Of a stretch of 64,000 nucleotides of DNA, positions 2,247-58,736 are shown piece after piece. The stretch is from the sequence record PQ850631.1, one strand, 5' to 3'. Source of the DNA: Escherichia phage VerenaGrendelmeier_Bas101. The position numbers were made by a program, and so were the translations under genes. The notes under the pieces are model-generated. The model was not told the DNA's origin and made no database searches. It was given only the letters and a program-made list of their open reading frames with translations. Position 1 is the stretch's first letter. Each line of letters begins with the position of its first letter.

Positions 2247-4622
2247 ATGAAAATTCTTGGCATAAAACTCTGGGAGAAGACGCAACCAGAAGCCGAACCA
2301 GCGGAGATGCCGCCAGGCGACCCATTGGCACCGTTTGAACGCCTGGAAAGGCGCGGCAGCGGCCAACGCTGGGATAAGACCGAAAGCAACCGCCCGACCT
2401 TTAAAACCGTTGATGACTTTCCTTTATATGAGCCTGATATCAACGGGGACGGTGTTGCAATCATTAAAGGTCGCTCAGTAGATTCAGCAACCGTATCCAA
2501 AAAAGTTATGGATAATGCCTTAAAGAACATAAGTTCAGAAGGGCAGGTGAATCCATACACAGTCCCTATTCAGTTGCAAAACTGGTACTTATCGCAATCA
2601 TTTATCGGATATCAAGCTTGCGCCATCATCGCGCAGCACTGGCTAGTGAACAAGGCTTGTTCCATGGTAGGCCGCGATGCGGTCCGTAAAGGCTGGGAAG
2701 TCAAATCCAGCTCTGAGTCGGAATTGTCAGTACAGGCAAGCGAACGCCTAAAGCAAATTGATAAAGAATTTAATATCAAAGAGCACTTAGTTGAAGCCGA
2801 ACGATTCAAGAATATTTTTGGCATCCGCGTCATCATATTTGATGTGCGCAGTGATGACCCAGAATATTATAGCAAACCTTTTAACATCGATGGCGTGACA
2901 AAGGGGTCTTATAAGGGAATCATTCAGGTTGACCCTTATTGGATGATGCCATTCTTGACATCTGAAAACACTGCAGACCCTGCATCACAGCATTTTTATG
3001 ATCCAGAATATTGGGTGATCAGCGGACAACGTTATCACCGCAGCCACCTCATAATCTTGCGCAACGATGAGCCAGCTGATATTCTCAAGCCGACTTATAT
3101 CTATGGCGGCATTCCTTTGACTCAGCAGATTTATGAACGTATCTATGCCGCTGAACGTACCGCTAACGAAGCTCCATTGCTGGCGATGTCTAAGCGTACA
3201 ACCACGCTGCGGACCGACGTTGACAAGGCGATTGCCAATGAGCGGTCGTTTGCCGAACGTTTGATGATGTGGATTAAGTACCGCGACAACTATGCGGTAA
3301 AAGTACTTGGTCAGAAAGAAGAGATGGACCAGTTTGACATCAACTTGTCAGACTTCGACAGCATCATCATGAACCAGTACCAGCTGGTGGCCGCAATCGC
3401 AAAAGTTCCGTCGACAAAACTGTTAGGGACGTCACCTAAAGGCTTTAACGCCACTGGTGAGTTCGAAATGGTCAGCTATCACGAAGAATTGGAGACTTGT
3501 CAGCAGCACGATTTGACGAAGATTCTTGACCGTCACTACAAAATCCTTTTGAAATCTGAAGGTGTTGAAGTCGACGTTAAAGTGGCATGGGAGCCAGTTG
3601 GTTCACTTACTGCTACTCAACTTGCAGAGATTAACGACAAACGAGCGAATACTGGTAAGACTCTCATTGATGCTGGCGTCATCTCCCCTGATGAAGAGCG
3701 CGACCGCATCAAAGACGACAAAAACAGCGGCTACAACCGTTTGCCAGAAGATACAGCAGAAGAAACCCCAGGGATGTCTCCAGAGAATATGGCATTGCTT
3801 GGCAAGTCCGCTGGTGAAGTTCTGCAAGGTAAGGCCGATATTGAACAGGCTAAGGCTGATGTTGTCAAGATGGGCGGCCAGTTCTATAGCGAGACTGGTA
3901 TCATGCCGGAAGGTGCCGCGCGCGGTGAGTTGGCAGAAAACCCTGACAGGGCACCAGTTGAGATTAACATGGATGATACCGATGACGAATCAAGCCATCA
4001 CGTTGATGTTCTAACGCAACTTAAAGAGGGTCTGGAGGGTATTGCTGACTATTACCTTAAAGAAGGTCAGGACGTGGATTTTGACCCTCAAAAAGATGCA
4101 AGGTCGGTGCAACCGTCTACGCTTCCAAGCGTAAAAGGAAATGTCGTAAACTTGCGACACAATGTAGGGAAGATGGATGCCGCATCGCTGCCTAAGATGA
4201 AGTTGCACGGGATGATTCTTGGTATTGAGAATCCTCGCAACAGCATTCGCAGGGGTAACAGTCTTGATGGTGAATGGGCAGTTAAGATGCCGCACCATTA
4301 CGGATTCATCAAAGGAACCAAGGGTGCTGATGGTGATGAAGTCGACTGCTTTGTTGGACCAAATATGAAGTCGCCTAAAGTATTCATCATTAACCAAAAT
4401 GATAATTATTCTGGCGAATTTGATGAACACAAGTGTATGCTTGGATTCGATTCAGCAGAAGAAGCGAAAGAAGCTTATCAGGCATCATTTGGTAACGGTT
4501 GGAATGGATTCGACTCAATCCACGAATTGGATGTAGACTCATTCAAGGAGTGGTTGAAGGGTGATTGCTCTCAAGCATATGGAGCACTCAATAATCCTAC
4601 TAATTCACCGAAGCAAGGTTGA
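2247..4622 (+). CDS. portal-like protein with C-terminal inorganic-pyrophosphatase-like domain
   Basis: large ORF after terminase; start moved to ATG 2247 behind AGGTGG RBS; C-terminal HHYGFIKGT..DGDEVDCFV and AEEAKEAYQASF resemble family I PPase. Confidence 0.55.
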   Translation: MKILGIKLWEKTQPEAEPAEMPPGDPLAPFERLERRGSGQRWDKTESNRPTFKTVDDFPLYEPDINGDGVAIIKGRSVDSATVSKKVMDNALKNISSEGQVNPYTVPIQLQNWYLSQSFIGYQACAIIAQHWLVNKACSMVGRDAVRKGWEVKSSSESELSVQASERLKQIDKEFNIKEHLVEAERFKNIFGIRVIIFDVRSDDPEYYSKPFNIDGVTKGSYKGIIQVDPYWMMPFLTSENTADPASQHFYDPEYWVISGQRYHRSHLIILRNDEPADILKPTYIYGGIPLTQQIYERIYAAERTANEAPLLAMSKRTTTLRTDVDKAIANERSFAERLMMWIKYRDNYAVKVLGQKEEMDQFDINLSDFDSIIMNQYQLVAAIAKVPSTKLLGTSPKGFNATGEFEMVSYHEELETCQQHDLTKILDRHYKILLKSEGVEVDVKVAWEPVGSLTATQLAEINDKRANTGKTLIDAGVISPDEERDRIKDDKNSGYNRLPEDTAEETPGMSPENMALLGKSAGEVLQGKADIEQAKADVVKMGGQFYSETGIMPEGAARGELAENPDRAPVEINMDDTDDESSHHVDVLTQLKEGLEGIADYYLKEGQDVDFDPQKDARSVQPSTLPSVKGNVVNLRHNVGKMDAASLPKMKLHGMILGIENPRNSIRRGNSLDGEWAVKMPHHYGFIKGTKGADGDEVDCFVGPNMKSPKVFIINQNDNYSGEFDEHKCMLGFDSAEEAKEAYQASFGNGWNGFDSIHELDVDSFKEWLKGDCSQAYGALNNPTNSPKQG

Positions 4623-4623
4623 T

Positions 4624-5475
4624 ATGGCTTTTAAAGCTTCGAAAAAACGTGAACGCCGCTCACCCGATAGAATCGGGCGCGGCAGTCCGATAATCCCATC
4701 CAACGCTATTGCGATGGCCTATCGTCGTGAGATGAAAGGTCTTTGCTATGCGATGATTGACGACTATCAAGCAGGAATTGCTGAGTGGCTTGAAAAGAAG
4801 CAGGTGAAAAAGTTCTTTGCGCAAGACTCTGCTGATTCAACTTTTCAGACCTTGATGAAGCGCCTTCAACTGAAATGGGCAAAAGCATTCGCCCGTGTTG
4901 GGTCAAAGATTGCTGCAGATTTCATCAAGTCAGTTGAAAAGGGTGCGACTTCTGCTACATTCGCAAGTCTTAAATCTGCAGGAATAGAAGCGCCAAAAGC
5001 CACATATAATAAATTCGTTGAGAACACTCTTAAAACAAGCGAGACGTTCAACACGACTCTAGTGACTAAGGTTGGCGAGGATATTCACAACAGGGTGTAC
5101 GAAGCGGTGATGCTTTCGCTGACTTCGCCAGACCCAGCGCAGCAAGGCACATCCGGCATTCAGGCGGCACTAAGGAATGTAAAACAATTCTCTGCAAAAC
5201 GCGTAGACCTTATCGCCAAAGACCAAACGAGCAAACTTTATTGCGTATTAAGTGATGAAAGGATGCGACAGAATGGCGTTGAGGAATTTGAGTGGGCGCA
5301 TTCAGGAGCAGGCAAAGAGCCGCGAATATCACATGAGCACGTCGACGGCATGAGATTCAAGCTTGATGACAAACGCTTATGGGAAGTAGGTGGAGAACTT
5401 AAGTTCAAAAAGGGTGACATCGGTCCTCCTGGATGGGCAATACACTGCAAGTGCAGAAAAATACCAATTATCTGA
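4624..5475 (+). CDS. head morphogenesis protein (MuF / SPP1 gp7-like)
   Basis: follows portal; start taken at ATG 4624 just after portal stop; family assignment from position and C-terminal region, not searched. Confidence 0.5.
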   Translation: MAFKASKKRERRSPDRIGRGSPIIPSNAIAMAYRREMKGLCYAMIDDYQAGIAEWLEKKQVKKFFAQDSADSTFQTLMKRLQLKWAKAFARVGSKIAADFIKSVEKGATSATFASLKSAGIEAPKATYNKFVENTLKTSETFNTTLVTKVGEDIHNRVYEAVMLSLTSPDPAQQGTSGIQAALRNVKQFSAKRVDLIAKDQTSKLYCVLSDERMRQNGVEEFEWAHSGAGKEPRISHEHVDGMRFKLDDKRLWEVGGELKFKKGDIGPPGWAIHCKCRKIPII

Positions 5476-5482
5476 GGTCATT

Positions 5483-6403
5483 ATGACGATACCAATCAAC
5501 ACATTCCCTCTATCTGGACAAACTCCAGTCTTGCCTGCGGTGTATGCTAATGGCTTGGCAATTGTCTCAGAATTCACTTCTGATAAAAACTTGATTGTTC
5601 CACTGAGCCCGCCGCTTGCATCAGGGTATAACTCAGTAGGTCAATTCTTTATGATTGGCAATGATGGCGATTCGACCAGCAAGCCTAACCTGACATTGTC
5701 TGTGCCTAAGATGAACATCACAGACGTTCAAACTGGCTTGACTGCATCAACAATCACCATTGCTTTTGGTGAAGCAGTGATCATAGGTATGGAGTCTGGA
5801 GGGTCGAAAAACGCTGTCGCAGTCAAAGTTGTGAAAACCAGCGGCAACCAATACACGTTACCAGCGGCAACAGCTTCCGTTCTTGGTGGCGTCAAAATAG
5901 GCACCGGAATAAGCGTAGCAGGTGATGGTACAATCAGCGTCACCCAATACTCATTGCCGATTGCCTCAGCATCTACTTTAGGCGGCGTAAAGGTCGGTAC
6001 AACTCTATCAATTGATGGGTCTGGTGTGCTTAATGCAGCAGCAAGTACCGTCCAGAATGCCACTAATAGCGTCAGCAATCCTCCAACAACTTTGGTCAAT
6101 CTGGCAACCTTAAACCTTCCTGCAGGGAAATGGCTTGTAACAGCAAGTCAGTTGACTGTCGCGACAGCAGGCGTTCAAGCGAATACCGGAATTACAGTCA
6201 AATTGTCAACAAGCAATTCAGATATTACGGATGATGCATTTGCCATGTCAGCTGGAATTCGGGCTGCAGGTCGCTTCGGCGGCAACATCCCAACAAAAGT
6301 AATTACTCTTGCCGCGCCTGGTAATGTGTATTTAAACTATCAGTGCACCGACGCGTTGACATCTACCGTTTACGGACAGATCACCGCAATTAAGCTGAAC
6401 TAA
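5483..6403 (+). CDS. structural protein with internal tandem repeats
   Basis: start moved to ATG 5483 behind GAGG; two about 30-aa repeats containing LGGVK(I/V)GT. Confidence 0.45.
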   Translation: MTIPINTFPLSGQTPVLPAVYANGLAIVSEFTSDKNLIVPLSPPLASGYNSVGQFFMIGNDGDSTSKPNLTLSVPKMNITDVQTGLTASTITIAFGEAVIIGMESGGSKNAVAVKVVKTSGNQYTLPAATASVLGGVKIGTGISVAGDGTISVTQYSLPIASASTLGGVKVGTTLSIDGSGVLNAAASTVQNATNSVSNPPTTLVNLATLNLPAGKWLVTASQLTVATAGVQANTGITVKLSTSNSDITDDAFAMSAGIRAAGRFGGNIPTKVITLAAPGNVYLNYQCTDALTSTVYGQITAIKLN

Positions 6404-52067: not shown

Positions 52068-52559
52068 ATGATCATTCATCGCCCTTTAATGTTAAACAAA
52101 GAAGAGTGTGAAGAAATTTTACACGCATTGAGACGTGCAGAGGCAGATGTCAACATTCGTGTAAAGGTAAGAAACTTTATCATGAATGAGTTTAAAGGTT
52201 ATGATGTTGACTATGCCATCGATAAATTACTGAATCGAAACGTCAAGGGTGCAACAAGACCTATTCACCATCAATCACGTTGCGTAAGAGTTCCTATTAA
52301 AACTTATGTTGATAAAAAGCCGCGCCTTAAGCCAATTGACATATTTGACATAAAGAACGGCTACTCAATCATAAGCAAGGACGCGGAAGAGGGTGCAATT
52401 CCTGTCAATGGCCGAGTGATTCACGTGTCGCACGATGCTGATCAGACTTTAATTCAATGGGTAAGGTTTGATAACACTGGCGGCGGCAAATATCGCTACT
52501 ATGGCGACGAGCGATTCACCACTAAATTCTATAAGGTACTCGACCATGGCTCATGTTAA
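52068..52559 (+). CDS. hypothetical early protein
   Basis: 163-aa ORF. Confidence 0.45.
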   Translation: MIIHRPLMLNKEECEEILHALRRAEADVNIRVKVRNFIMNEFKGYDVDYAIDKLLNRNVKGATRPIHHQSRCVRVPIKTYVDKKPRLKPIDIFDIKNGYSIISKDAEEGAIPVNGRVIHVSHDADQTLIQWVRFDNTGGGKYRYYGDERFTTKFYKVLDHGSC

Positions 52560-53458: not shown

Positions 53459-53463
53459 ATATC

Positions 53464-53511
53464 AAAAAGGTGAGCTAAATGCTTGCCTTTTCTTTTATCA
53501 ATACCTATACT
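53464..53511 (+). terminator. terminator-promoter cassette, copy 1
   Basis: GGTGAGC / GCTTGCC stem with G-U wobbles 53469-53487, U-run; descending arm supplies TTGCCT -35 (53483-53488), 17-bp spacer, TATACT 53506-53511. Confidence 0.55.
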
Positions 53512-53543
53512 CTTTTCATCAAGACGAACAATTGAGGTGAATT

Positions 53544-53861
53544 ATGATTTACTTAGGAATGGACCAGGAACAAAACGAGTTGCTAGGAAGCGTGTTAAAC
53601 GTAGACTTGAACACAGCTGTACACATCAAGCCTTGGCCAGAGGACCACGGCGACGTAGTTGTACCCGTTGCGCCTTGGACGCGTTACGTGGCCATTGACA
53701 ATGACGGCCTCGTACATTGTTATTCAGAAAAGCCGACTTACTTCGAAAAGTATCACCAATGGCTGATGACTGGATGGGCAAAGGTGCGCTGTTGCGGCGA
53801 AGTCAGTCTGGAAGGCTGGAGCTTCGAGGCTAGTGAATCGTGTGTCGAGGTGAAATTATGA
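53544..53861 (+). CDS. hypothetical early protein
   Basis: 105-aa ORF; shares A.D..G....EKP....QWL motif with 57338..57829. Confidence 0.45.
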   Translation: MIYLGMDQEQNELLGSVLNVDLNTAVHIKPWPEDHGDVVVPVAPWTRYVAIDNDGLVHCYSEKPTYFEKYHQWLMTGWAKVRCCGEVSLEGWSFEASESCVEVKL

Positions 53862-54076
53862 ATGCCGCGCTGGGTAAGTTGTCGTTCAATAAGCGTAACG
53901 AATTGCGCATGGTGTCGCGCTTTCAACAAACGCATTTATCACTAATCAAGATTGCAAACAAGGCCTACTCTCTAAATTGTCCTGAAGAAGAATGGAAAGA
54001 ATTGAATGAGCGTCATAAACAATTACAAAAGGCTGCATTTAAGCTGCAGCAATATGCTATGGAGTATGCAAAATGA
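53858..54076 (+). CDS. hypothetical small protein
   Basis: start moved to ATG 53858. Confidence 0.35.
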   Translation: MNAALGKLSFNKRNELRMVSRFQQTHLSLIKIANKAYSLNCPEEEWKELNERHKQLQKAAFKLQQYAMEYAK

Positions 54077-54456
54077 GAATGAAGCGTTGCCCTTACTGCC
54101 ACGATGTGATGCATCTTCCACACGAAGAGTTTGTGCAGCACATGACTAACTGTGATAAGAATCCTAAGAGCGAAAGCCAACTTGAAGAAAGAATGTTCTT
54201 GGTGTCATTCAAAGCTTCTGCTTATGAAGTGCAACGTTCTTACGGCGCACCAAGTACGATTTACTGTCCAACAACGTTGAGAAGCGACATCGACTCAATT
54301 CAGCTTTCGACTTGGATTAACGTTAAGGAAGGAGTCACGCCTCACTTTATTGCGCGCATTCAATCTCAGATTCTACAAATCAAGCGCGAATACAACCGTG
54401 ACATCACTGAAGTGAAGGTGTTGTCTATCACGCCGATGAATAAGGAGATGCCGTGA
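54073..54456 (+). CDS. zinc-finger-like early protein
   Basis: 127 aa; N-terminal CPYCHDVMHLPHEEFVQHMTNC. Confidence 0.4.
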   Translation: MRMKRCPYCHDVMHLPHEEFVQHMTNCDKNPKSESQLEERMFLVSFKASAYEVQRSYGAPSTIYCPTTLRSDIDSIQLSTWINVKEGVTPHFIARIQSQILQIKREYNRDITEVKVLSITPMNKEMP

Positions 54457-54713
54457 ACAAGGGTCCGATGACGAAGTTGGCCGTTGCCGCGCGGAAGCTT
54501 CGACAAGCCGTTAATGGGTCGCGGCCCGTGGCATTAACACTCGACGACGCAAAGGCACTGGTAGAGCTACTCGACGAGCACAACCGACGCAAGAATCTGG
54601 AGAACACATTACGCTGGCGCGTTACTCCGAAAGGGCGGGAGAGTGAAAAGAAAGCTTACTTGCGACGCAAACTAAGGTCAGTCGGCCTCCACGAAGAAGC
54701 AAAGAATATTTAA
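54453..54713 (+). CDS. hypothetical small protein
   Basis: 86-aa ORF, followed by terminator. Confidence 0.4.
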   Translation: MNKGPMTKLAVAARKLRQAVNGSRPVALTLDDAKALVELLDEHNRRKNLENTLRWRVTPKGRESEKKAYLRRKLRSVGLHEEAKNI

Positions 54714-54716
54714 TTC

Positions 54717-54763
54717 AAAAAGGTGAGCTATATGCTTGCCTTTTTATTTGACTGTATTATACT
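54717..54763 (+). terminator. terminator-promoter cassette, copy 2
   Basis: near-identical to copy 1: stem 54722-54740, U-run, TTGCCT 54736-54741, 16-bp spacer, TATACT 54758-54763. Confidence 0.55.
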
Positions 54764-54791
54764 TAGTTCATCAAGCAAAGGAGATTTGATT

Positions 54792-55043
54792 ATGCGTATC
54801 AAACCAGCAACCCATCGAGTCCAAGACCTAAGTGGCTTTCTTGAGAAGCAAATTAACATTAATGAATTGAAAGGTGATATTTCAGCGTATTTTTCAATTA
54901 AGCAGATGCAGTTGGATGCGCAAGAAGATGGTGATATGGAAATGGCTGCTGCATTTGGATCAAGTATGAGACAGATTCGTGAGAAGTATGACGAAAGAGT
55001 TTGGAAAAAAGAGATTGGATTGATTCAAGCAAAGGAGAAATGA
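54792..55043 (+). CDS. hypothetical small protein
   Basis: start moved to ATG 54792 behind AAGGAG, downstream of the terminator-promoter element. Confidence 0.4.
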   Translation: MRIKPATHRVQDLSGFLEKQININELKGDISAYFSIKQMQLDAQEDGDMEMAAAFGSSMRQIREKYDERVWKKEIGLIQAKEK

Positions 55044-55045
55044 TT

Positions 55046-55351
55046 ATGAGTTACGACGAAAGGTTTGGCAGAAGCGTATTGTTTCATGATGCTGTTTGGA
55101 TGGACAGCCAAGATGTTGTCTGCGTAGCGTTGAATGAATCTTATAACGGTGTGCTCAAGCCGTTCAAAATCGGTGAGACATACGAGCTGTTTCACGGATG
55201 GTTGACGCGTCGCAACAACCTTCCTGATATGGAAGTCTGGTGGATAGAATACAAGGGTCAGGCTCATCGGTGCAAGGTTGTAGAGATGCACGGCGTCAAA
55301 TACTATCAATCGATTATCAGCGGCTTTGTTTTTAAAGAGGGTGAGATATGA
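55046..55351 (+). CDS. hypothetical small protein
   Basis: start moved to ATG 55046. Confidence 0.4.
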   Translation: MSYDERFGRSVLFHDAVWMDSQDVVCVALNESYNGVLKPFKIGETYELFHGWLTRRNNLPDMEVWWIEYKGQAHRCKVVEMHGVKYYQSIISGFVFKEGEI

Positions 55352-55653
55352 GCACCGAAGCGATGAAGAGCAAGTTGTTGAAGGTGATGCAGGCCGCTGT
55401 CGAGTGCGGCGCTATTCAGGATTTCAAAGAGACGCAAGAAGGCGGTGAGCCAGTATTCTTCTTCAAGAACAAGAAAGGTGCGGCGGCTGCGGTGATGCTC
55501 TTGAAGAACAGCGACACGACCTTTATCCTTTGCGCAGGCGGTTATGACCTTGTTGCCGATGACTCTTACATCACCTGCGCGACGGGTATTAATCCTATGT
55601 TAACGTTCGAGCGTCGCGGTATTCGTGTTGCGACATTTGGAGGCTGTTTATGA
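55348..55653 (+). CDS. hypothetical early protein
   Basis: 101 aa; N-terminus resembles that of 56163..56672. Confidence 0.4.
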   Translation: MSTEAMKSKLLKVMQAAVECGAIQDFKETQEGGEPVFFFKNKKGAAAAVMLLKNSDTTFILCAGGYDLVADDSYITCATGINPMLTFERRGIRVATFGGCL

Positions 55654-55946
55654 AACTAAGTTTAGCACAAGTCCAAACATTATACCGTATGGAAGACGGG
55701 ACGCGATATATGTTGCGTGGCGATTGCAAGAAGGCTCATGAGAAGCGCCCATCGCTGTTTCATGACGTCAATGCACCATCAATCCCTGTCTTGTTTCGCC
55801 TTGGGCTTGTTGATTGGGCGGTTCAAGGAGAAAAAGACCCAAGGCTATATTCATTTGTGGTGATGACAAAGAAGGGTCGCGAGGCATTACAAGGAATTAA
55901 AGAGAATATGAGAAGAGGAAAATACTATTATGACATCCAACCTTAA
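55650..55946 (+). CDS. hypothetical early protein
   Basis: 98-aa ORF. Confidence 0.4.
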   Translation: MKLSLAQVQTLYRMEDGTRYMLRGDCKKAHEKRPSLFHDVNAPSIPVLFRLGLVDWAVQGEKDPRLYSFVVMTKKGREALQGIKENMRRGKYYYDIQP

Positions 55947-56166
55947 AGCCCGTTTATTATTCATCAAGCCGCATGTGCCGTATAAGATTAGTAAGCGCAC
56001 CTGGCTTAACATTTACAACCGCAGCGGCAACCGTTGTTTGTACAAGGCAAAGCGGCGCAAGAAGGTATATTTAAAGGCTGTGATGTCGCAACCCGTTGAT
56101 GCATTCAACATCGGCGAAAATGAATTGTCAATCGGCTATCAAATTGAACTAGGAGTAAAGAAATGA
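55930..56166 (+). CDS. hypothetical small basic protein
   Basis: 78-aa ORF. Confidence 0.35.
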   Translation: MTSNLKARLLFIKPHVPYKISKRTWLNIYNRSGNRCLYKAKRRKKVYLKAVMSQPVDAFNIGENELSIGYQIELGVKK

Positions 56167-56672
56167 AAATCGAACAACTCGAAGCAGTATTGGCAATGGC
56201 TGTTAAAGCAGGCGCAATCAAAAGCTGGCATCGCGAGAAGTCGGATGATGGCGCGCATTTTTGTCGCAACTTCTATATCGTCGGCAACCTTAACGACCAC
56301 TACACCATCGAGTGGTATATTAACATGATGACGCTTAAGTCGCGCACCATGGAGCTTTGGTTTGATGACGTTTGCCTTTCTCATAGCCACCCGTGCTACG
56401 ACGTTGCGCTTGGATTCTTTTACAAAAGCAACCAACCAATCGCCCACATCGGTGAGAAGCATGAGCATTTGAAGGATAAGCAAAAGACTGCTGACGGCTG
56501 GATTGATTGGGACGGCAGCGACTCGAATCCAGTACCAGGTAAGAAAGTTATGTATAAGCTTCGAGACGGTTATGAATCAAGAAGGCCTGTACTTTCGGAT
56601 AGTATGACATGGGAAATTGTCGGTAGACCTTTTGGCGACGACATCATCGCTTATCGCGTCGTGGAGGAATAA
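56163..56672 (+). CDS. early protein with shared C-terminal NPVPG...DIIAYRVV domain
   Basis: 169 aa; C-terminal 60 aa paralogous to C-terminus of 57826..58245. Confidence 0.45.
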   Translation: MKIEQLEAVLAMAVKAGAIKSWHREKSDDGAHFCRNFYIVGNLNDHYTIEWYINMMTLKSRTMELWFDDVCLSHSHPCYDVALGFFYKSNQPIAHIGEKHEHLKDKQKTADGWIDWDGSDSNPVPGKKVMYKLRDGYESRRPVLSDSMTWEIVGRPFGDDIIAYRVVEE

Positions 56673-57013
56673 TGGAAGAGCAAGAAGGACGTGAGCTAAC
56701 GTTCGACGAGCAGATGCAAGAGCTTCAGCGCACATCGCCGCTGCGCGGTAAGGTTGTTGACATCGAGGCGAGCAAGTCCAATCTCACTCAGTGGCGGCTC
56801 AAGTGCACCAGCACAAGCAAAGAACTGTCGAGCTTCAAAGTCGGTCAGACCTATTTGCTTTATGAGGCAAAAGGACTTATTATTGATGGAAGGCAAATTG
56901 TCTTCACGGTAGTCAGCGGAATGCGTTGGTTCGTGAAGCGTGATGTCGAGGGCCGTGACATGTTTGTCGCAGGCTTTCCAGAAACAAGATTCCAATTGGA
57001 GAAGGTTAAATGA
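56672..57013 (+). CDS. hypothetical early protein
   Basis: 113-aa ORF. Confidence 0.4.
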   Translation: MEEQEGRELTFDEQMQELQRTSPLRGKVVDIEASKSNLTQWRLKCTSTSKELSSFKVGQTYLLYEAKGLIIDGRQIVFTVVSGMRWFVKRDVEGRDMFVAGFPETRFQLEKVK

Positions 57014-57345
57014 AATTGAAATGGTACGTGGACCCTGAGCCGACAGGCTCATACAGGTCATTCCAACGTCGCGGCTGGCCGATTTGTTACAGCGGTAATC
57101 CCGATAAAGAAGACTGCGAGATGCTCGCCGCGATAGTAAGTCTTAATCATGACGGCTATGAAGGCCACTACGCGAGAGCAACCAACCTTCGGCTCAAGGT
57201 GCGCATCCATTTCAAGGTCGCAGGCGAGGACCGCACAGGACTCTCCAAGGAAGAGTTCAGCAGCATTGCCGAAGCAAAGGCATGGCTCAAGGCATTCTAT
57301 AAGAACAACCTAAATTTTATCCAACTAAGGACGCATCATGACTAA
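57010..57345 (+). CDS. hypothetical early protein
   Basis: 111-aa ORF. Confidence 0.4.
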   Translation: MKLKWYVDPEPTGSYRSFQRRGWPICYSGNPDKEDCEMLAAIVSLNHDGYEGHYARATNLRLKVRIHFKVAGEDRTGLSKEEFSSIAEAKAWLKAFYKNNLNFIQLRTHHD

Positions 57346-57829
57346 CAAAACGCAACGCATCAATTTTGAAGGTAAAGAATACGAAATAGACGCTCGTGCA
57401 AGATTCGTCGCGCGTGACTCTAACGGAACCATCTGGGCGTACGAGGAAAAACCTGTATGGGAAGAGCGGCGCGGCCAGTGGTTGTATGAAACATGCGGTT
57501 CAGTTTGGTGCGAGCGCATCGACCAAGTGAAGACGTTTGAAAAGAACAGGCCATCATCACGTGATTCATTGAAGGAAGTCGAATCAATCAAAATCAAAGA
57601 CCCAGCGCCGTCGACCGATAAACAATACGCAGTCGGGCAACGTGACATCGAGCAACTCGACGAGGGCGGCTATTATACGCGCCACATCCATGCCATGACT
57701 CAAGAAGGACTTTACAGCAAGTCGGACATCGCCGCTGAACTGGCCCATCGTGACTTACAAATCGACCTTCTCAAGATAGAAGTGCAGAACTTACGAAACA
57801 CCCTGTTAAATACTTGGAGCTTAAAATGA
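57338..57829 (+). CDS. hypothetical early protein
   Basis: 163-aa ORF; N-terminal motif shared with 53544..53861. Confidence 0.4.
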   Translation: MTNKTQRINFEGKEYEIDARARFVARDSNGTIWAYEEKPVWEERRGQWLYETCGSVWCERIDQVKTFEKNRPSSRDSLKEVESIKIKDPAPSTDKQYAVGQRDIEQLDEGGYYTRHIHAMTQEGLYSKSDIAAELAHRDLQIDLLKIEVQNLRNTLLNTWSLK

Positions 57830-58245
57830 TACAGCGTTACGATGTTGATTATTGCACGCAGCACGCTTGCACTTGTGAAGTTGTAAAGGATGATGAAGGC
57901 GGCTATGTTGAATATGAGGACTATGAATCACTACTCAAGCTTAATGAGTCGCTAACAAAAGAGATTGAGCAATACCGCGAGCGCATCAAAGTCGCTGAAG
58001 ATATTATCAAGCTTTTTAGCGAGGCTGTTGAGAAATACAAGGAGCGCAACGTACCGATTAAGGAGGAAGCGTGGACCGTGTGGCGTGGTGGCGATAATCC
58101 GGTGCCTGGTGAGATTGTTGAATACAAGCTGCGCAATGGAGGTGATAAAGTTCTGTCGAGACTTTCTGATCATCTTCACTGGGGTCATATAGGCGCGTTA
58201 AAGGGCAGCGACATCATTGCTTATCGGGTCGTTAAGGAGGGGTGA
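57826..58245 (+). CDS. early protein with shared C-terminal NPVPG...DIIAYRVV domain
   Basis: start at ATG 57826 overlapping upstream stop; CxxC-like N-terminus CTQHACTC. Confidence 0.45.
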   Translation: MIQRYDVDYCTQHACTCEVVKDDEGGYVEYEDYESLLKLNESLTKEIEQYRERIKVAEDIIKLFSEAVEKYKERNVPIKEEAWTVWRGGDNPVPGEIVEYKLRNGGDKVLSRLSDHLHWGHIGALKGSDIIAYRVVKEG

Positions 58246-58694
58246 TGGGCAAACGGCTTATCGCCGCTGGTTGGGCCATACCGAAGTGGGGCCATCGTGC
58301 GCATTACTTTGACGAAGGAGAAGGGCAAAGCCTTTGTGGTCGCGCAACATATTTCGGTGATGAGCGCGTCAGCGGCGATTATATCGATTCGCTTTTAGGT
58401 AAAGGTGATTGCAAGAAGTGCCAAAATATATTAAGAGATATTCTTACGCAAAAAGGATTGCTTGAGCTTGATGAATCGGAAGAAGTAATTGATCTTAAGC
58501 TGGAAGCCAATCACCTTATTAATATGTTCAAGAATTATTACTTAACTAATATGCGCTCAAAGATGCGTAAGGAAGTAATAGAAGAGGTACTCACTTACAA
58601 TCCTTTAAGGATGAATAAAACTAAATTGAAGAAGTTTAATATAATGATAAGGAAGGAATTTAAAAGGCTTGGAGTGAAGAATTTTATATTTTAA
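58242..58694 (+). CDS. hypothetical early protein with Cys cluster
   Basis: 150 aa; CGRATYFGD...CKKCQ; last gene before terminator. Confidence 0.4.
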   Translation: MMGKRLIAAGWAIPKWGHRAHYFDEGEGQSLCGRATYFGDERVSGDYIDSLLGKGDCKKCQNILRDILTQKGLLELDESEEVIDLKLEANHLINMFKNYYLTNMRSKMRKEVIEEVLTYNPLRMNKTKLKKFNIMIRKEFKRLGVKNFIF

Positions 58695-58710: not shown

Positions 58711-58736
58711 GAGGGCCGATTGGCCCTTTTTGTTTG
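58711..58736 (+). terminator. rho-independent terminator ending early operon
   Basis: GGGCC / GGCCC stem, 4-nt loop, then 9-nt T-run. Confidence 0.65.

Follow-up and report, generated by a model that had tools for sequence, protein, structure and literature searches.

Mosaic, modular evolution of phage accessory regions is well established, the nin/early region of lambdoid phages being its paradigm. Here, we describe a run of small genes in a 64,000-nucleotide (nt) stretch of DNA from Escherichia phage VerenaGrendelmeier_Bas101 (sequence record PQ850631.1; the whole of this stretch is referred to as the window), in which two protein modules, which we call A and B, are each present twice. The locus resembles lambdoid mosaicism in that small genes without a known function are swapped, as cassettes, at conserved boundaries, vary in presence and absence, and recombine at short common stretches. 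It differs from it in that what is exchanged is often only a part of a gene, a domain of 58-77 amino acids (aa), and in that two paralogous copies in one operon act as crossover sites, as found in phage ECML-117. The phenomenon as such is ordinary phage mosaicism, unsurprising to a phage genomicist, and the unnamed family of module B is only a modestly novel element, being large and having a confident model, without a name, a function or a structural neighbour.

Other described systems share single traits with the locus. Phage MazG-like and SaV-like proteins (DUF3310, DUF6378, dGTP_diPhyd_N) are fusion partners of B in other phages, whereas none of them is present in the window proteins, where B is joined instead to a module D and to a coiled coil. 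The SH3/Tudor-like small beta-barrels are comparable since A and B are both predicted to be small all-beta folds, but no significant match to a solved member was obtained (E of 0.5 or higher). As to the variable proteins of diversity-generating retroelements, the two B copies of the window differ throughout at the nucleotide level and not at adenine positions only, a comparison that concerns the pattern of differences only. The lambda protein Ea22 (ead/Ea22-like), likewise an early or accessory phage protein, was considered as a possible carrier of a B-like C-terminal domain, but is not one, as a six-frame hidden Markov model (HMM) scan of the lambda ea22 region revealed neither A nor B (all E>0.3).

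The locus and its modules

A search with about 6 kb around the locus returned 28 phage records with about 86-92% nt identity, in pieces spanning 61-82% of the query. All of these belong to E. coli/Shigella myophages of the Wifcevirus type, about 68 kb in size (e.g. ManiWeber_Bas99, Mansfield, WFH, ECML-117), and the source of the window is a Wifcevirus-like E. coli myophage. Every gene under the 6-kb match is annotated as 'hypothetical protein', and a literature search gave no account of these genes or of when they are expressed. The five genes to which a preliminary description of the sequence had drawn attention, starting at 53544, 55348, 56163, 57338 and 57826, belong to a plus-strand run of small open reading frames (ORFs) with overlapping stop and start codons, located downstream of the DNA primase. 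The products of four of them are divided into the following modules, for which database matches are given in brackets.

53544..53861, plus strand: gene of a 105-aa protein consisting of a 25-aa leader and module A (residues ~26-103, nt 53619-53852; phrog_1972 E=1.7e-22; module-A HMM residues 26-103)
57338..57595, plus strand: second copy of module A, residues 1-86 of the 163-aa product of 57338..57829 (z=11.4 against the 53544 product; phrog_1972 E=2.3e-14)
57614..57829, plus strand: module C, residues 93-163 of the 57338..57829 product, fused to module A, helical with a coiled-coil-like tail (phrog_34533 E=8e-16)
56163..56474, plus strand: module D, residues 1-104 of the 169-aa product of 56163..56672 (phrog_21861 E=7.7e-50; 81-91% identical across the genus)
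56484..56672, plus strand: module B copy 1, residues 108-169 of the 56163..56672 product, followed by the stop codon (B-family HMM E=1.4e-18; AlphaFold2 pLDDT, the predicted local distance difference test score, 85)
57826..58059, plus strand: N-terminal segment (allele N1, C-x2-H-x-C-x-C) and helical/coiled-coil segment (allele cc1) of the 139-aa product of 57826..58245 (phrog_23083 E=4.6e-10)
58060..58245, plus strand: module B copy 2, residues 79-139 of the 57826..58245 product, followed by the stop codon (B-family HMM E=1.1e-20; 51% identical to copy 1)

For the gene at 57826, the MIQRYD with which its orthologs begin identifies the ATG at that position as the correct start. The helical or coiled-coil character of the segment in front of B copy 2 is suggested by its sequence and by weak matches to coiled-coil families. 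When the profile of module D was compared with the PDB, it matched designed consensus-tetratricopeptide repeat (TPR) chains with a whole-sequence E of 4.5e-7, no single stretch passing and the Pfam TPR models being silent, a match which is probably noise summed over repeats.

Two of the proposed pairs are paralogous

Paralogy was measured by all-against-all BLASTP of the 23 ORFs of the region and by Smith-Waterman alignment against 2000 shuffles, a control of the kind that the preliminary description had set for its own claims. It had proposed that the products of 56163..56672 and 57826..58245 share a C-terminal domain, and this proved correct, the alignment score being 138 compared with 29.5±4.9 for shuffled sequences (z=22). 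The two C-termini are 51% identical over 59 aa (BLASTP E=1e-14), and all the invariant residues that had been listed for them were found in the pairwise alignment. The products of 53544..53861 and 57338..57829, said to share an N-terminal motif, are likewise similar, with a score of 77 against 26.9±4.4 (z=11.4) and 40.5% identity over 37 aa (BLASTP E=1e-6). None of the 2000 shuffles reached the score of either pair. In this second pair the likeness is real, but the motif is not N-terminal in the 53544 product, where it occupies residues 47-74 of 105. Moreover, since both proteins match phrog_1972 over about 77 aa, what they have in common is a domain and more than a motif. Scanned in six frames with HMMs, the entire 64-kb window contained exactly two copies of each of modules A and B and no more.

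The third likeness, between the N-termini of the 55348 and 56163 products, did not rise above chance in the same control. The gene concerned is

55348..55653, plus strand: gene of the 101-aa protein F, for which the claimed likeness to module D is not supported (z=1.9; hhalign probability 9.9%)

The alignment score was 32 compared with 24.4±3.9, a value reached by 115 of the 2000 shuffles, and BLASTP gave E=1.6. A short N-terminal helix (A[VL]..AV..GAIK.[FY].E) could still be homologous in the two products, which we regard as quite unlikely. The motif becomes sharper in the orthologs (AVKAGAIKSY versus AVNCGAIKEF), which is suggestive, and a profile-profile comparison of the ortholog alignments by hhalign gave P=0.003 over 29 columns. 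However, the hhalign probability is low, as noted above, and P=0.003 is not significant because about 250 pairs are possible, so that one such value is expected by chance. The two products have no PHROG in common either: phrog_21861, which spans the 56163 N-terminus, gave no match to the 55348 product, and protein F matched no PHROG or Pfam family.

Modules are exchanged among ten Wifcevirus genomes

For a comparison within the genus we used the window together with the homologous loci of nine Wifcevirus relatives (Bas99, Mansfield, ECO71P1, WFH, AV128, SP13, vB_Eco4M-7, WFC and ECML-117), and mapped six modules in every ORF. The shuffling of domains that had been proposed for three modules is supported by this comparison for two of them, through gain, loss, duplication and change of position, and not for three. 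Whereas the 53544-type gene encodes 105 aa in all ten genomes, the A+C fusion (57338 type) is present only in the window, Mansfield and ECO71P1, with three more records added by tblastn, and the module A segment of this gene is found in three of the nine relatives (Mansfield, ECO71P1 and Eco4M-7). Module C is a separate gene of 72-77 aa in Bas99, WFH, SP13 and WFC, and its tail is replaced by alternative ones in Mansfield, ECO71P1 and AV128. The D+B gene (56163 type) is reduced to D alone, of 108 aa, in Mansfield and AV128. The 57826-type gene has three N-terminal alleles and two coiled-coil alleles, most combinations of which are found across the genus together with several B alleles, and in ECO71P1 this gene (locus nt 4647-5243, 198 aa) carries two tandem B modules (E+cc+B+B, where E and cc are the N-terminal and coiled-coil segments).

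The B modules themselves do not follow gene position. The 18 B modules of the ten genomes fall into at least 7 alleles, and the first copy of the window is nearest (54-56%) to the copy-2 alleles, from the 57826-type gene, of Mansfield and Eco4M-7. At the nucleotide level, copy 1 (56484..56672) is 59-67% identical to the relatives or absent from them, and copy 2 (58060..58245) shows 88-94% identity to ECO71P1, SP13 and AV128 and 58-63% to WFH and Bas99. A 100-nt identity map also contains breaks on the scale of modules, with 57400-57600 being present in three of the nine relatives, and 56500-56700 being at 59-67% or absent between flanks of 90-99%. The variation of B looks like allele replacement.

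ECML-117 provides a case in which the junction can be located. In this phage the 5' part of the D gene is nearly identical to the D type up to the conserved stretch coding for NPVPGK, and then continues as a copy-2 allele into the downstream gene. This chimera is a crossover, inside that stretch, between two paralogous B modules. It is accompanied by a deletion of about 1.4 kb, by which the orthologs of 56672 and 57010, that of 57338 and the N-terminus of 57826 are gone; as ECML-117 lacks four gene segments, part of the operon is dispensable, at least one relative growing in plaques without it. In summary, our results show that A and B are autonomous, ancient modules that have been recombined at conserved edges, and that the two B copies within one genome are themselves substrates of recombination.

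A few variants were observed beside these. In AV128 (locus nt 4776-5168) module C continues into an unrelated tail of about 70 aa. In vB_Eco4M-7 (locus nt 4313-4805) a frameshift splits the A+C gene into a 62-aa module-A protein and an overlapping ORF of 144 aa, and the same split is present in the resequenced/synthetic vB_Eco4M-7n.

Module B defines a large unnamed domain family

Module B is about 58 aa long and has the signature WxWxGG(e/n)(C/N)PV … V.V..R.G … W.H … DI[IV]AYR(V). Using a family profile built from a 79-sequence alignment, we found that both window copies match it over the whole unit of about 58 aa; their PHROG matches have E=4.6e-10 to 4e-3, and over modules A and B together the PHROG matches of the window proteins range from 1e-22 to 4e-3. 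Copy 2, in the 57826 product, has all the signature residues (WxWxGG..PV, V.V..R.G, W.H, DI[IV]AYR). Copy 1, in the 56163 product, keeps W, W, G, NPV, R.G, W and DIIAYR, with GSDS in place of GG, and lacks the His that follows the third Trp.

When 1.84 billion cluster representatives (50% identity) were searched exhaustively with the profile, 6,607 proteins had E<=1e-3, of which 846 reached E<=1e-10. This was the informative search, word-indexed homolog searches having given few matches (5, 15 and 26 proteins). By tblastn, B was located in at least 254 phage records, with Salmonella, Klebsiella, Escherichia, Pseudomonas, Burkholderia, Rhizobium/Sinorhizobium, Caulobacter and others as hosts, nearly all of the genes being annotated as hypothetical, and the family spans many phage groups of Proteobacteria in both phage and prophage proteins. 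One prophage-like B gene had no match in E. coli genomes, and a pattern scan of genome contigs returned 3 loci, the pattern being too specific.

Four PHROG families correspond to B (phrog_9174, 11995, 16943 and 26870), all of 'unknown function'. B is N-terminal in 9174 and C-terminal in 11995 and 16943, and these differing positions indicate that it is a mobile domain and that the PHROGs are clusters of whole proteins, not of the common domain. Among the best 150 proteins and the seeds, 22 contain one B copy, 105 two, 18 three and 7 four, a list that favours multi-copy proteins as scores add up, so that its copy-number and partner statistics are not population estimates. Tandem copies are arranged head-to-tail with a gap mostly of 10 residues or fewer (median 3 aa). 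B lies at the extreme C-terminus in 101 of 152 proteins, 20 proteins consist of little more than B, and the standalone members have 59-62 aa. Fusion partners include dGTP_diPhyd_N, DUF3310 and DUF6378, which are MazG-like nucleotide pyrophosphohydrolase domains, each in 6 of 147 proteins; in a second set, from viral contigs, DUF6378 was present in 3 of 22 proteins and dGTP_diPhyd_N in 1 of 22.

AlphaFold2 gave a confident, small, beta-rich model of isolated B from the 79-sequence alignment (pLDDT 85; predicted template modelling score, pTM, 0.69), in which DSSP assigned two long strands and otherwise bridges only. From this model, the standalone members and the tandem arrays, B appears to fold as an independent unit. 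A structure search of BFVD superposed B only on uncharacterised members of the same family, with template modelling (TM) scores of 0.7-0.9. At the family level, column entropies delineate a conserved scaffold (W8, W11, GG, PV, V24, R29, G31, W45, DI[IV]AYR) and highly variable stretches at about residues 32-44 and 46-54, a pattern of scaffold and variable loops that is seen at the genus level too. In Pfam, no family spans the domain in 147 full-length members, and the 79 isolated segments had no match below E=0.03; PF26207, which is listed for protein P0177, was not reproduced with Pfam. A PADLOC scan gave a sole match, to LmuB, at the coiled-coil level (E=0.006, 12.8 bits). None of the resources searched defines B or A as a domain.

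Module A also occurs outside Wifcevirus

Module A comprises about 77 aa with the core [FY][IV]A.D..G.[IV]..Y...P……W, and corresponds to phrog_1972, 11307, 15430, 19703 and 28884, all of 'unknown function'. Standalone module A proteins of 54-64 aa exist (P0018-P0020). By tblastn, the fused A+C form was found in seven Wifcevirus records, and distant forms of A in Suseptimavirus ECBP2 and other podoviruses of about 70-78 kb, including BASEL Gordonclarkvirinae isolates, as well as in Proteus Gorganvirus and Providencia strabovirus (Straboviridae). Foldseek placed YgdR/DUF903 small barrels as its best PDB neighbours (probability 0.84, target-normalised TM 0.64), a match that is not significant at E=0.5 and derives from a low-confidence model.

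Among 190 collected proteins, A and B never occurred in one protein, and they were neighbours once, on a viral contig. This contig, IMGVR_UViG_3300034375_006619, encodes a standalone 79-aa module-A protein (…WVAMDADGVWFWYEEKP…; locus nt 5793-6032) 1.6 kb downstream of a fusion of a dGTP_diPhyd_N-like domain with module B. Their vicinity on this contig indicates that the two modules travel in the same accessory regions outside Wifcevirus too.

What the modules may do

The explanation that we favour overall, and consider probable, is that of a fast-evolving accessory operon whose small proteins are built from independently folding modules, with B as a portable binding or adaptor domain. Accordingly worded as a mechanism, the small proteins would be assembled from such modules, A and B each being used twice; the conserved, aromatic-rich scaffold of B would carry variable loops (about residues 30-54), and these loops would set target specificity. 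The N-terminal partner of B, either D or the E segment with its coiled coil, would supply activity or oligomerisation, and the operon would serve host interaction, by takeover or counter-defence, and not core replication. The functional part of this, in which a portable B would bind targets or act as an adaptor through specificity-setting loops and the operon would act in host interaction, we advance more tentatively, at slightly less than an even chance.

Several points weigh against this explanation. The variability of the B loops could be neutral drift in a small domain. No library that we searched gives a function for module A or B; the five window proteins have no Pfam or NCBIfam family above threshold, the PDB sequence library and PADLOC are silent on the modules, and Foldseek found no neighbour for B in the PDB (best E=0.5, TM of 0.36 or less). 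The all-beta AlphaFold model of A comes from a shallow alignment and is of low confidence (pLDDT 58; about 67-80 for residues 1-50), and the arrangement of B copies and partners was drawn from a list biased in the way stated above. The literature gave no transcriptome for any Wifcevirus, and the term 'early', like the 'host-takeover' and 'anti-defence' labels that the preliminary description had attached to the locus, is inferred.

Alternatively, B may be a nucleotide- or nucleic-acid-associated accessory domain that tethers or regulates nucleotide-pool enzymes and that in Wifcevirus would direct its partners to DNA or to the replisome. The only recurrent named partners of B are indeed MazG-like (dGTP_diPhyd_N, DUF3310, DUF6378, dATP-dGTP_PPHyd), with one HD domain besides; B genes often lie beside replication genes, as in Burkholderia phage HN03 (polymerase, exonuclease and primase), helicase or replication proteins were read from the sequences near B in viral contigs, and the conserved Trp, Tyr and Arg of B could suit base stacking. 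However, any one enzyme domain is present in just 6 of 147 and 1-3 of 22 B proteins, most partners being helical, unknown or none, and the PDB sequence, Foldseek and Pfam searches revealed no likeness to a known nucleic-acid-binding fold. We hold this role to be unlikely.

A further proposal takes B to be an unrecognised fold serving as a general-purpose recognition domain exchangeable by cassette, in which hypervariable loops on a conserved aromatic scaffold, with alleles swapped between genes and genomes by way of conserved coding edges, would retarget small effectors against host factors or defence; stated in this wide form, it strikes us as doubtful.

Wifcevirus phages resist all tested defence systems except EcoP1_I, by a mechanism of protection that is not known (PMC11990801). 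This resistance makes the presence of counter-defence genes plausible, without pointing at the genes described here. The B-containing proteins might themselves be anti-defence effectors, acting as inhibitors or sponges, with the allele diversity of the loops reflecting an arms race with host immunity. Consistent with this are the swapping of the B alleles, at least 7 in number, between two gene positions, the variable presence of genes among genomes that are 87-92% identical, their location in an accessory operon, and the broad defence resistance of the genus (PMC11990801). Among the window proteins, no match to any defence family or named family was obtained, the BFVD neighbours all being uncharacterised, nor did homology to a characterised anti-defence protein emerge, although no library of such proteins was among those searched. 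Moreover, the four BASEL Wifcevirus isolates have the same resistance profile, though Bas99 lacks module A in its 57338-type gene and Bas100 has it, which argues against these alleles deciding the tested phenotypes; we judge such a role to be rather improbable.

Finally, illegitimate and homologous recombination in a dispensable region might have left the paralogy behind as a neutral by-product, with modules that serve no specific role in the phage. This is very improbable: ECML-117 is viable without four gene segments and the A+C gene of vB_Eco4M-7 is frameshifted, but the scaffold residues of B are kept across thousands of diverged clusters and in both window copies, and apart from that one frameshift the ORFs are intact and their start and stop codons coupled in the ten genomes.

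If the descriptive part of the explanation that we favour stands, a domain family of thousands of clusters is invisible to Pfam and NCBIfam, and many 'hypothetical' phage proteins become multi-domain. The locus would also show, as a clean case from nature, modules smaller than a gene being exchanged, a crossover between paralogs of the same genome having been mapped, and its dispensable, polymorphic genes, in a genus of broad defence resistance, would form a short list of reasonable candidates for a knock-out screen. The current view of phage evolution is unchanged by this, the value lying in annotation and in the candidate set.

Operon boundaries and neighbouring genes

The transcription signals of the region were read from the sequence, and those that bound the operon are the following.

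54715..54785, plus strand: terminator-like hairpin followed by a promoter-like site and a ribosome-binding site (RBS), at the start of the operon (sequence reading; 30-nt repeat)
58713..58735, plus strand: GC hairpin with a T-run closing the operon (sequence reading; WFH has an annotated terminator at the equivalent place)

A hairpin (AAAAAGGTGAGC-loop-GCTTGCCTTTT with a T-run) directly followed by a promoter-like site occurs twice, at 53462-53525 and 54715-54785, 1253 nt apart. The 30-nt core of this repeat (53462-53491 and at 54715) has 0 matches expected by chance, and the repeat would split the run of small genes into transcription units. The WFH annotation has terminators at these three places, and WFC also has annotated terminators at matching places. 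With these hairpins and terminators as bounds, a single unit of about 11 small genes, 54793..58694, holds four of the five genes. Sigma-70-like sites and terminators were the only transcription signals seen at the operon.

Side observations were made on other genes of the run. The products of 52068-52559 and 58242-58694 have in common a stretch centred on Y[YF]GDER (36% over 25 aa, z=3.0, 30 of 2000 shuffles), a likeness that is probably due to chance. The products of 55046-55351 and 56672-57013 have a common motif FK[IV]G[EQ]TYxL[FY] (z=3.8, 11 of 2000 shuffles), which is not significant after multiple testing and may come either from one more weakly paralogous pair or from a small-barrel motif that is common. 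The gene at the end of the operon, 58242-58694 (phrog_2358), is 450 nt long in the window and 534 nt in SP13, Eco4M-7 and WFC; nucleotide similarity to these three ends near 58300 or earlier, which indicates that this gene has alternative alleles as well. At the opposite end of the operon, a 27-nt linker containing the RBS and start (TCAAGCAAAGGAGAnnTGATTATG) is duplicated at 54771-54797 and 55025-55051, bracketing the gene 54793..55043, which is present in none of the nine relatives and looks like a cassette inserted at a conserved gene-boundary sequence. The duplicated linker further implies that translation of the next gene begins at the ATG at 55046 and not at the TTG at 55001.

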